A stretch of 64,000 bases of DNA from an uncultured Candidatus Saccharibacteria bacterium. Its GTDB lineage: Bacteria > Patescibacteriota > Minisyncoccia > Phycocordibacterales > CAIRYW01. The position numbers were made by a program, and so were the translations under genes. The notes under the pieces were generated by a model. It had not been told where the DNA came from. It ran no database searches and saw only the letters and a program-made list of their open reading frames with translations. The stretch spans positions 5,743 through 69,742 of the forward strand of contig CAYUPH010000002.1 in NCBI GenBank assembly GCA_964446625.1, in the 5' to 3' direction. The number at the start of each line of letters is the position of its first letter. Positions within the stretch are counted from its first letter, which is position 1. Of this stretch, positions 46,296 to 47,195 are shown piece after piece.

Positions 46296-47195
46296 CTATG
46301 CAGTTTTTGACGCCAAAAGACTAATTGCTTTTGTGACAATGGGGAGAATATCATCATAAAAATTTAGGTCAAGGATTTCATTTACTTTAAACCATTTTGC
46401 ATCGTCGAGGCCTCCTGACTCTCCAAGTGAAAGTTCAGTCATGTCTGCGCGAGCCAAAAAGTAGTTTACTTGCTTTCGGACTTTGCCTTTTTCTGGAAAA
46501 GTTGCGACATATTCATTTGAGCCAAGTTTATCTTCCGGAGTCACTTCTACTCCCATTTCTTCTTTTACTTTTCGAACAACTGCAAGCTCATCAGATTCGT
46601 CTGGTTCGTTGTGCCCCTTCGAAAGAGTCCAGTGTCCAAATACATCATGGACAAGTGCTAAGAAAATATCGTCTCCTTCACGAGCGTACACCACCGCCCC
46701 TACCAGCCTTTCAATTGGAAGAGACTCAAACGGAACCTCCTCCGCTTTTCGCTTTGAAGCCTGATCTTTTCCAGGCTCACCAAGCTCTTTGTATACCGCT
46801 CCCAAAACTCCGTTTACGAACTTTCCAGAAGTGTCTCCTCCGAAACTTTTTGCAAGCTCAATCGCTTCGTTAATCGCTACCTTTGGAGGAACTTGTGTTC
46901 TGTCAGCAAAGAGAAGCTCAAAAAGACCGATGCGGAGTACATTTCGGTCAACATTTGCAATCTTTTGAAGTGGCCAATCTGGGGCTGCTTTTTCAATAAT
47001 TCTATCGAGGTCAGGCTGTTTTTTTACAACACCCTCCGCAAGAGTTTTCATATATTCCGCGTCAGTTGAACCAGCAGCGAACTCAGAAATGTTCCGCTCT
47101 AGTGTCGGCAAAACCATATCAGATTTCTTTCCATTGAAATCCCACTCAAATATTGTTTGCAAAACGACAGACCTTGAAAGATGCCTATTGGCCAT
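46296..47195 (-). CDS. nusB: NusB antitermination factor fused to a C-terminal NUDIX hydrolase domain
   Basis: [30 protein letters not shown] is near-identical to E. coli NusB. Then comes the Nudix box [30 protein letters not shown]. Confidence 0.85.
   Translation of the reverse strand: [299 protein letters not shown]

Follow-up and report, generated by a model that had tools for sequence, protein, structure and literature searches.

The locus and the fused reading frame

The nusB::nudix reading frame occupies positions 46296..47195 on the minus strand of the window (the whole 64-kb stretch of DNA analyzed here) and encodes 299 amino acids from an ATG start, with the stop codon included in the coordinates. 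The gene for ribosomal protein L32, rpmF (47223..47444, minus strand), lies 27 nt upstream of the fusion and is the first gene of the predicted operon. On the other side, rnc (RNase III; 45604..46290, minus strand) starts 5 nt after the stop codon of the fusion. The earlier note on this DNA had described the gene order inversely to transcription, with the fusion upstream of rpmF and downstream of rnc-smc; rpmF comes first on the coding (minus) strand, followed by nusB::nudix, rnc, and an smc-like gene.

A promoter-like site, TTTACC-18-TATATT (47445..47474, minus strand; a consensus match only), is found just upstream of rpmF. Two terminator-like hairpins with T-runs flank the genes. One, with a stem of 10 bp (8 GC), closes the upstream purC unit (47494..47516, minus strand), and the other, of 11 bp (9 GC), directly follows rnc (45549..45573, minus strand) and is the predicted end of the rpmF-nusB::nudix-rnc unit. 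Among relatives, rpmF was located directly upstream of the fusion in 68 of 77 related loci, and in 77 of 80 species-level loci rnc is the next gene downstream. Thus, rpmF-nusB::nudix-rnc is predicted to be a conserved operon bracketed by terminator-like hairpins. BoxA-like motifs were not found upstream of the operon, and the window contains 7 matches where 12 were expected. A scan of the 64-kb window against Rfam gave no matches; therefore, the window offers no rRNA leader to examine.

The reading frame had been interpreted as NusB joined in-frame to a Nudix domain, and this interpretation holds. Both Pfam models, NusB (PF01029) and NUDIX (PF00293), score above cutoff in the 299-aa protein, and the frame at 46296-47195 (minus strand) has no internal stop. 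A stop codon or frameshift between the domains, named in the earlier note as evidence against the fusion, was not found in this uninterrupted frame or on the 9 contigs, from independent samples, that encode the identical protein. Both domains are present in 120 of the 120 best homologues, and a survey of relatives showed the ~300-aa architecture to be common to the best 80 species-level genomes, which belong to Paceibacteria/Parcubacteria lineages.

An artefact, in which an assembly chimera, a frameshift or a read-through merged two separate genes, is effectively refuted, because the fusion occurs independently on the 9 contigs and in the best relatives; we regard its probability as close to nil. 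The junction motif YKExGEPGK, invariant in the close clade, also speaks against it. All that was found in its support is one related contig (L086) with a stop at the Tyr135 codon. This locus was considered as a "split" gene pair, that is, as Rosetta-stone evidence, and rejected: at the very position of the Tyr135 codon there is an in-frame TAA, beyond which the frame runs on into the Nudix part. As this TAA lies inside a fusion, close relatives that showed up in the representative search with Nudix alone or NusB alone are probably fragments or miscalls. No naturally unfused pair of NusB and Nudix orthologues was found, L086 being the sole "split" locus. Genuinely unfused NusB, such as P0188 in an unrelated gene context, is an exception among the NusB-only relatives.

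In the Paceibacteria/Parcubacteria lineages, a large group of uncultured, tiny bacteria, the NusB-Nudix fusion is the rule. The papers searched (for NusB with Nudix, and for NusB in Patescibacteria) contained no description of it, and the lineage-wide fusion is apparently undescribed so far.

Domain structure of the fusion protein

Antitermination of rRNA transcription relies universally on NusB as a core factor, which in model bacteria is a 15-kDa protein with no added domain. In the fusion, the NusB domain comprises amino acids 1-138 with seven helices (46782..47195, minus strand), as delimited by PF01029, TIGR01951, AF2, and Foldseek. PF01029 matched amino acids 7-136 with 118.6 bits (cutoff 23.1), and the NusB equivalog model TIGR01951 scored 128.6 bits (cutoff 88.35). 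The AF2 model is all-helical from amino acid 4 to 138 with pLDDT mostly >85, and Foldseek aligned the domain to 3R2D_B with a TM of 0.86 and an rmsd of 1.9 A. The equivalog score and the fold match confirm the earlier assignment of the first ~140 amino acids to NusB.

Alignment to 2JR0/3R2C showed that functional residues are kept, with F126 corresponding to F122 of AaNusB, D83 to E81 of AaNusB, and F16 to Y18 of EcNusB. In the family, F126 is conserved to 100% and D83, a conservative Glu->Asp exchange relative to AaE81, to 94%. Besides the fold and the TIGR01951 score, the fusion therefore shares with NusB from A. aeolicus (3R2C/3R2D NusB-NusE-BoxA complex) and E. coli the Phe stacking on BoxA U8 (F126), the acidic reader of U8 (D83), and an aromatic side chain where NusE is contacted (F16). 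Judged by score, fold, and these residues, the N-terminal half is an authentic NusB with intact BoxA- and NusE-contact residues. In contrast to the fusion, model-organism NusB ends without the 160-aa addition of tether and Nudix fold at the C-terminus and sits in an operon other than rpmF-nusB-rnc. No second NusB was found in the 64-kb window.

Identity as RsmB/Sun was rejected. RsmB models match the N-terminal half weakly and well under their cutoffs (62 versus 319 bits), there is no methyltransferase domain, and the N-terminal half is a true NusB equivalog. RsmB/Sun is a precedent in that a NusB-fold module for RNA binding is linked covalently to a domain with an enzyme fold that has rRNA as its target; the partner domain is a methyltransferase in RsmB/Sun, whereas it is a Nudix domain in the fusion.

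The tether spans amino acids 139-160 (46716..46781, minus strand), with pLDDT <50 for amino acids 141-150. Its YKExGEPGK motif is invariant in the close clade (A1) only, and the mean identity of the tether across distant representatives is 17%. A structure prediction had been proposed as a check on the fusion. AF2 gave the NusB helices and the low-confidence tether, with a pTM of 0.49 for the full fusion and no docking of the Nudix domain on NusB, and Foldseek recognized both folds. Since the tether is of low confidence and the pTM is 0.49, the two halves are, as modeled, independently folded domains on a flexible tether of ~20 amino acids. The identity is 68% for the Nudix domain and 70% for NusB.

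The C-terminal domain (amino acids 161-296; 46308..46715, minus strand) has a Nudix fold of the Ap4A/Ap6A-hydrolase type according to PF00293, Foldseek, and phmmer. PF00293 scored 54.3 bits (cutoff 21.1) over amino acids 165-279. The phmmer search against the PDB returned Ndx1, CT771, and Ap4A hydrolases, and the Nudix domain of NrtR (3GZ8) was among the top Foldseek fold matches. Alignment to 1KT9/NUDT2 revealed the phosphate loop GHWTLSKG, the counterpart of the subfamily motif HWTxPKG, with K193 and the aromatic pair Y229 and Y280, the equivalence of the loop-5 Tyr being dependent on the alignment. The roles of the phosphate-binding Lys and of the adenine-stacking aromatics have been described for Ap4A hydrolases (PMC4734340).

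In both sequence and fold, the Nudix domain is best matched (TM 0.74-0.89) by the Ap4A/Ap6A hydrolases from A. aeolicus (3I7U, TM 0.89), T. thermophilus (Ndx1, 1VC8, 0.84), C. trachomatis (CT771, 4MPO, 0.80), and C. elegans (1KTG, 0.74), together with human NUDT2. A phosphate loop of the form GHWTxxKG, a Lys (K193), and the aromatic pair Y229/Y280 are common to these enzymes and the fusion. Its Nudix domain is closest to the NUDT2/Ndx1-like branch of Ap4A/ApnA hydrolases and probably descends from it. It differs from these enzymes in being joined to NusB and in carrying a Lys, not conserved in the family, in place of the first REUxEE Glu; furthermore, the box decays in its orthologues. Membership in the RppH family was rejected, as the scores lie far under the equivalog cutoffs (models NF001936 and NF001938; 16.3 versus 118 bits and 11 versus 116 bits). 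The Nudix domain is strongly acidic, and generic electrostatic RNA binding is considered unlikely because of its net charge of -11.

Conservation of the Nudix box

The Nudix box (amino acids 194-216; 46548..46616, minus strand) is degenerate. It reads G194-HNEPD-E200-SDELAVV-R208-K209-V-K-E212-E213-M-G215-V and deviates from the complete box GX5EX7REUXEEXGU in that the Mg-binding Glu of "RE", the first of REUxEE, is replaced by K209 (codon AAA, 46569-46571), giving RK. The description of this box as canonical in the earlier note was thus incorrect. That note had also counted a lack of the catalytic Glu residues as evidence against its assignment; one of the three is indeed absent, whereas E212 and E213 are kept.

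Among 120 close members, the "RE" position is occupied by K in 67, E in 29, V in 16, A in 5, and I in 3. Position 209 changed 26 times on the tree of these 120 sequences, with at least 16 switches between E and other residues (K/V/A/I), while E213, G215, K193, W189, Y229, D264, and Y280 never changed. The window's own clade shows no variation at E200, R208, E213, and G215. By this comparison, the first box Glu is dispensable and unconstrained in the NusB-Nudix family.

Across 55 divergent representatives, the full box was found in 8, and 30 have at most one of the three REUxEE Glu residues. RI stands at the "RE" position in 13 of the 55, the same substitution as in vertebrate TRPM2. The catalytic residues are retained to different extents (E209 in 12, E212 in 31, E213 in 39, and R208 in 31 representatives), whereas the positions of the ligand pocket are occupied by K/R193 in 53, an aromatic residue at 229 in 48, Y280 in 50, and K/R241 in 48. 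Even in the box-degenerate members, the Lys and the aromatic pair are retained in 25 of 30. The alignment thus indicates that ligand-binding positions are better conserved (~90%) than catalytic ones. Pfam recognized NusB in 53 of 53 divergent representatives and NUDIX in 42, the latter being lost in 11 of the 53.

Four stand-alone Nudix ORFs in the same 64-kb window have intact boxes. For the Ap4A-hydrolase-like one (17531-17950), RE..EE is kept in 12 of 12 homologues, down to 32% identity; this control is suggestive rather than strong, because the family comprises just 13 homologues. Box-less members of the fusion family, such as L087, still have the fusion and the rnc linkage. The box conservation expected of an enzyme under catalytic selection is not seen among the NusB-Nudix orthologues.

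Possible roles of the Nudix half

As the catalytic motif is decaying, the Nudix half more likely binds a nucleotide than cuts it. Our tentative reading, to which we give slightly less than an even chance, is a Paceibacteria-type NusB with a tethered Ap4A-type Nudix domain, whose conserved job would be to bind rather than primarily hydrolyze an adenine-nucleotide polyphosphate, as an accessory in the rRNA antitermination/RNase III machinery. Candidate ligands are a free signal, for instance ATP/Ap4A, or, on the nascent pre-rRNA leader, a 5' end with (p)ppA or an Np4 cap. In the latter case, NusB-S10 would hold the leader via BoxA and the Nudix domain would bind its 5' end. With its ligand bound, the module would be an accessory or regulatory part of the rRNA antitermination complex, which prepares for RNase III processing during transcription. 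Enzyme folds used without catalysis in other machines would be parallels, namely SuhB in the E. coli rrnTAC, CFIm25 in mRNA 3' processing, and NUDT9-H in TRPM2. Members retaining E200, R208, E212, E213, and G215, including the protein of the window, may for this reason show Mg-dependent binding and slow residual hydrolysis.

Precedents for binding exist among Nudix domains. Loss of the first box Glu reduced kcat to ~1% with unchanged KM in NUDT9-type domains, and human TRPM2 NUDT9-H (RILRQE) binds without hydrolysis (PMC6461439). CFIm25 binds Ap4A with a Kd of 2.4 uM and does not hydrolyze it (PMC2425470). Like the fusion, CFIm25/NUDT21, TRPM2 NUDT9-H, and the NrtR effector domain have a Nudix fold with an incomplete box inside or fused to a non-hydrolase machine, and they bind nucleotides with no or greatly reduced hydrolysis. 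However, they have no subfamily-level homology to the fusion and other partners than NusB, and ligand binding by the fusion is putative. With regard to the machinery, a stable rrnTAC is needed for co-transcriptional RNase III cleavage, and NusB/E is locked in place there by SuhB, a protein with an enzyme fold (PMC6614801; bioRxiv 10.64898/2026.03.17.712431). As an accessory subunit that stabilizes NusB/E and enables RNase III processing in E. coli, SuhB is a putative parallel to the Nudix module; it differs in its unrelated inositol monophosphatase fold and in being a separate polypeptide. By analogy, the Nudix-like domain might be a "reader" in NusB. It would either sense signals of the ATP/Ap4A type or capture the nascent pre-rRNA leader at its terminal adenosine, with a 5'-triphosphate or an Np4A cap; it would thereby lock or gate the NusB-S10-BoxA-RNAP assembly and, in Paceibacteria, take the place of the "lock" that SuhB provides in the E. 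coli rrnTAC. This specific form is speculative and, in our estimate, unlikely.

Several points run counter to the binding reading. The rest of the box is invariant in the window's own clade, which could reflect catalysis that persists when the first Glu is lost; non-canonical boxes occur in some active Nudix enzymes (PMC5389931), and nvTRPM2 (AEFGEE) is active (PMC6461439). The conserved aromatics and the Lys, assigned by aligning the sequence with solved homologues, could be structural rather than ligand-binding, and the equivalence of the loop-5 Tyr (Y229 versus F233/P234) varies with the alignment. The acidity of the Nudix domain would disfavor broad RNA binding.

The earlier note had suggested that the fusion places a nucleotide or cap pyrophosphatase on the elongation complex. 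A Nudix-fold module on the transcription and rRNA-processing machinery remains reasonable in view of the intact NusB residues and the conserved rnc operon; K209 and the low RppH score give no support to competent canonical catalysis. If it were an active RNA 5'-end pyrophosphohydrolase or decapping enzyme, the tethered domain would leave a 5'-p where the BoxA leader had carried 5'-ppp or an Np4A/NAD cap; the leader would thereby be marked for decay once RNase III has cut, and NusB-S10 would be recycled. RNA 5' ends are substrates of Nudix enzymes of the Ap4A-hydrolase type, NUDT2 for instance trimming PPP-RNA (PMC8616924), and the closest folds are the Ap4A/Ap6A hydrolases and CT771. The invariant E200, R208, E213, and G215 of the close clade, the fully canonical box in about one quarter of the close members and in 8 of 55 representatives, and the conserved operon with RNase III are consistent with such an enzyme. 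The protein itself, however, lacks the Mg-coordinating first Glu (RK), a substitution whose equivalent lowers kcat ~100-fold in NUDT9-type domains (PMC6461439). Because position 209 varies freely, most distant orthologues have lost at least two of the three Glu residues, and the RppH models stay at 16 bits against a cutoff of 118, this role is possible for some members but is probably not the conserved function of the fusion; as an account of the family we consider it rather unlikely.

Retention of the fold, nearly as constrained as NusB (68 versus 70% identity), despite family-wide decay of the box would suit a nucleotide-independent scaffold that anchors NusB-S10 to RNAP/NusA/NusG and replaces SuhB where NusA lacks AR2. 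NusA AR domains are not universal (PMC6614801), and the acidic surface could bind basic partners. Such a scaffold seems improbable to us, since the best-kept residues are phosphate and adenine binders in homologues and AF2 (pTM 0.49) shows no docking of the domain on NusB. Co-expressed genes are commonly fused in reduced genomes, and the best homologues are dinucleoside polyphosphate hydrolases. A housekeeping hydrolase of free nucleotides (Ap4A/ApnA, (p)ppGpp or damaged NTPs), fused for co-expression alone and with no role in the transcription complex, could be proposed on these grounds. Its catalytic box should persist as in the stand-alone paralogues, yet it drifts; box-less members still have both the fusion and the rnc linkage, and the absence of a naturally unfused orthologue pair from our searches likewise disfavors it. 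We judge this explanation very improbable.

The fusion joins NusB permanently to a Nudix fold, co-transcribed (as predicted) with RNase III, across a whole major class of Patescibacteria and hundreds of species-level genomes. If the domain binds or slowly hydrolyzes a nucleotide or RNA 5' end, rRNA synthesis and processing would be linked to nucleotide or cap status. Were the "reader" form correct, the state of the 5' end or of an alarmone would bear directly on rRNA antitermination and on processing by RNase III, and the family would be a natural series from hydrolase to pseudoenzyme sensor inside a core transcription factor. The fusion might also show how minimal genomes assemble an antitermination complex without SuhB. 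With its graded series from canonical box to box-less members, the family lends itself to studies of the path from enzyme domain to non-catalytic module. As regards annotation, a "hydrolase" function should not be transferred from a Pfam NUDIX match alone. The database label for the fusion protein is simply "NusB".

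Architecture and distribution of the NusB–Nudix fusion

The nusB::nudix gene (46296–47195, minus strand) is one ORF that starts with ATG and encodes 299 aa with no internal stop. The earlier note had read it as an in-frame fusion of NusB with a NUDIX domain, to be checked with Pfam, and this was borne out: PF01029 (NusB) matched aa 7–136 with 118.6 bits (cutoff 23.1), PF00293 (NUDIX) matched aa 165–279 with 54.3 bits (cutoff 21.1), and the identical protein with the same neighbours was recovered on nine contigs from independent ENA and Logan samples. The fusion is real. The NCBIfam NusB equivalog TIGR01951 scored 128.6 bits (cutoff 88.35); NCBIfam models of specific Nudix enzymes stayed far under their cutoffs (RppH, 16.3/118; MutT, 19.7/148; NAD diphosphatase, 33.6/158), and the RsmB models were likewise well below theirs.

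In the AlphaFold2 model (mean pLDDT 88), a NusB domain of seven helices (aa 4–138) and a Nudix alpha/beta/alpha sandwich (aa 161–296) are confidently folded and joined by a tether with pLDDT <50 (aa 141–150). As the pTM is only 0.49, their relative orientation is not confidently fixed. Foldseek searches of the PDB placed the C-terminal half closest to A. aeolicus Ap4A hydrolase (3I7U; TM 0.89, rmsd 1.9 Å); further top matches were T. thermophilus Ap6A hydrolase Ndx1 (TM 0.84), CT771, the C. elegans and human Ap4A hydrolases, mycobacterial MutT1/Rv2985 and the non-catalytic Nudix domain of NrtR. The N-terminal half matched NusB of the NusB–NusE–RNA complex 3R2D (TM 0.86). PDB sequence searches were consistent with these matches.

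In A. aeolicus NusB, F122 stacks on BoxA U8 (EcF122D is defective) and E81 reads U8 and contacts NusE H15; E. coli Y18, the site of the nusB5 mutant, sits at the NusE interface (PMC3177189). Alignment identified F126 (100% conserved in the family), D83 (kept in 94%) and F16 as the respective counterparts. Since these functional residues are present, the N-terminal half is, judged by its sequence, a bona fide NusB and not a mere RsmB-kind NusB-like RNA-binding domain. The protein is a NusB family member with every testable defining feature.

The tether region (46716–46781, minus strand; aa 139–160) carries the motif Y-K-E-x-G-E-P-G-K and, right after it, a basic patch, SKRKK. Predicted to be disordered, it is invariant among close relatives and not conserved in distant ones, and may serve these close relatives alone as a short linear binding motif.

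In a collection of 5.8 billion proteins, all 120 best matches contained both domains in ~300 aa, and their source names mentioned "NusB" only. At least 595 relatives were confirmed in species-representative genomes; the best 80 of these all match residues 1 to ~297, with titles including Kaiser-, Nomura-, Taylor-, Yonath-, Adler- and Lloydbacteria, Parcubacteria and Paceibacterota. The fusion is immediately followed by rnc at 77 of these 80 loci, often with an overlap, and immediately preceded by rpmF at 68 of 77. In the window, 27 nt separate rpmF from the fusion and 5 nt separate the fusion from rnc. A promoter-like site upstream of rpmF, together with strong hairpin terminators ahead of rpmF and immediately past rnc, predicts a three-gene unit, rpmF–nusB::nudix–rnc. 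The gene order read along the coding strand, with an smc-like gene beyond rnc, is the reverse of that in the earlier note.

The Nudix box and the putative nucleotide pocket

In the fusion, the box runs G194-HNEPD-E200-SDELAVV-R208-K209-V-K-E212-E213-M-G215-V. Lysine (K209, codon AAA at 46569–46571) stands in place of the first REUxEE Glu, so that the box had been called canonical in error. Among the 120 closest family members (64–100% identity), position 209 holds K (67 members), E (29), V (16), A (5) or I (3), with E200 and R208 each kept in 119 and E213 and G215 in all 120. Mean identity to the query in this clade is 68% for the Nudix domain, close to the 70% for NusB, and is lowest in the box segment (52%). 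On a neighbour-joining tree of the clade, position 209 underwent 26 parsimony changes, including at least 16 switches between Glu and another residue, and E212 underwent 17; E213, G215, K193, W189, Y229, D264 and Y280 were unchanging.

The complete G-E-RE-EE-G signature is found in only 8 of 55 divergent full-length representatives of 50%-identity clusters (32–57% identity). All three REUxEE glutamates are present in 9 of them, whereas 16 retain two, 23 a single one and 7 none; the box reads GQVMKEKYNL in one such protein, P0265, and is entirely absent from another, P0246. Pfam detected NusB in 53/53 representatives but NUDIX in only 42/53. By position, E209 is kept in 12 of the 55, R208 and E212 in 31 each and E213 in 39. 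Other positions of the Nudix half are better kept, namely W189 (51), K/R193 (53), an aromatic residue at 229 (48), K/R241 (48), Y245 (49), W268 (49) and Y280 (50); G166 is likewise among the best-kept Nudix-half positions (≥90%, alignment A3).

In Ap4A hydrolases, the P1 phosphate is bound by the HWTPPKG-loop Lys and the loop-5 Tyr, and the adenine is sandwiched by the same Tyr on one side and a C-terminal Tyr/Phe (human F128, C. elegans Y121) on the other (PMC4734340). The aligned counterparts in the fusion are K193, Y229 and Y280; the Y229 assignment pairs NEYVA with human LNYVA, and the HMMER alignment to the worm enzyme puts the gap elsewhere. This triad is kept in 25 of 30 representatives having at most one box Glu. 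A pocket that outlasts the box glutamates is as expected for a domain that would still bind nucleotide and no longer need hydrolysis, some residues possibly being structural.

Stand-alone Nudix genes served as controls. Those at 848–1345(-), 2771–3307(-), 7338–7817(+) and 17531–17950(-) all have intact RE..EE boxes, and in the family of the last, an Ap4A-hydrolase-like paralogue (139 aa; HWGFPKGTPEEGESEEQTARREFEEETGI), the box is intact in 12/12 stand-alone sequences, down to 32% identity. It is thus only in the copy fused to NusB that constraint on the catalytic motif is relaxed. The C-terminal half falls within the Nudix fold superfamily, yet it lacks the complete box and its orthologues do not conserve one; on the evidence so far, annotation as a Nudix hydrolase, RppH or Ap4A hydrolase is not warranted.

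Four stand-alone Nudix genes inside 18 kb are many for a small genome. The 17531–17950 paralogue has only 13 detectable homologues, two at ~83–98% identity and the named remoter ones from Myxococcales and Phycisphaeraceae (~37%), which suggests an accessory or horizontally acquired gene.

Possible roles of the Nudix domain

The first Nudix-box Glu is a ligand of the catalytic Mg, and a NUDT9 carrying RILGEE has no activity. In the sea anemone, the equivalent double mutant of NUDT9-H has a KM within twofold and a kcat down to about 1%, and human TRPM2 NUDT9-H (RILRQE) binds ADPR but does not hydrolyse it (PMC6461439). CFIm25, which belongs to an RNA-processing complex and has a Nudix fold with two box Glu missing, binds Ap4A at 2.4 µM with no metal bound and no hydrolysis (PMC2425470). 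In its working, the Nudix half most resembles these non-catalytic modules and NrtR. The protein also recalls RsmB, in which a NusB fold is likewise linked to that of an enzyme. In the E. coli rRNA antitermination complex, the enzyme-fold protein SuhB is needed for stable NusB/E integration (PMC6614801), and such stable assembly, which brings the BoxA leader into a loop with RNAP, is a prerequisite of co-transcriptional RNase III cleavage (bioRxiv 10.64898/2026.03.17.712431).

We tentatively favour the possibility that NusB bears the Nudix domain as an accessory module for nucleotide binding. An adenine polyphosphate would be the likeliest ligand, whether as a free signal or as the 5' end of the NusB–S10-bound leader RNA, and the domain would act in assembly, stability or regulation of the complex readying pre-rRNA for RNase III. 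The fusion's own clade strictly keeps E200, R208, E212/E213 and G215, which makes Mg-dependent binding with slow residual hydrolysis plausible for this protein. A truly active 5'-end pyrophosphohydrolase or decapping enzyme appears unlikely given K209. A nucleotide-independent, SuhB-like scaffold would not be expected to retain the phosphate- and adenine-binding positions best, and we consider it rather improbable. More doubtful again is a housekeeping hydrolase fused to NusB just for co-expression, which would be expected to keep its box. An artefact is practically negligible in view of the independent contigs.

The accessory-module reading concerns a fusion that is notable for being lineage-wide, within a core transcription factor and open to concrete experiments; both domains are familiar, and it is the function that we infer. 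Full-text literature searches on NusB with Nudix, or with Patescibacteria, Parcubacteria or CPR, returned no paper describing this architecture, and a Nudix-clan review does not mention NusB.

Variant loci and neighbouring genes

The gene for the very divergent, box-less P0265 still lies directly upstream of rnc (L087, an 8.9-kb locus from a lineage of 25% GC; GCA_054047225.1, JBPLFY010000016.1). Across eight genes there is not a single TGG codon, and seven in-frame TGAs coincide with conserved tryptophans of the fusion (the equivalents of W189 and W268) and of RNase III, a sign of UGA=Trp recoding in this lineage. Locus L086 (GCA_013565675.1), an apparent nusB (133 aa) and Nudix-like gene (141 aa), was rejected as a split pair: the gene is a fusion interrupted at 940–945 by one in-frame TAA where the Tyr135 codon would be (GVLGAV*KELGEPRKDQ...). 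A sequencing error, stop read-through or decay to a pseudogene could each account for this. No genuine unfused nusB and nudix pair was found among the loci inspected; P0188, an unfused NusB relative, has an unrelated gene context, and no second NusB is encoded within the 64-kb window.

Other close NusB relatives carry different C-terminal extensions. P0256, P0266 and P0267 (~340 aa) look like a Nudix-like remnant interrupted by a long Lys/Glu-rich low-complexity insertion, P0153 (264 aa) has the same GEPGK junction followed by an unrecognised domain, and P0142 (236 aa), possibly a chimera, ends in a tail with weak likeness to cytidylyltransferases.

An Rfam scan of the whole window (1–64000) yielded nothing at gathering threshold (no tRNA, rRNA, riboswitch or leader). 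The SMC-like gene (42978–45206, minus strand) encodes 742 aa with an SMC_N match and Walker A and signature/Walker B motifs; well short of the typical ~1,150–1,200 aa of bacterial SMC, it implies much shorter coiled-coil arms. It lies downstream of the fusion on the same strand in 70 of the best 80 of at least 595 related loci. Between rnc and this gene, the opposite strand carries a 70-aa ORF (45285–45497, plus strand) with no Pfam match, which is also called as a gene on two independent contigs of the same organism (L001, 11699–11911; L002, 3742–3954); at a third locus, L003, a 100-aa same-strand ORF takes its place.
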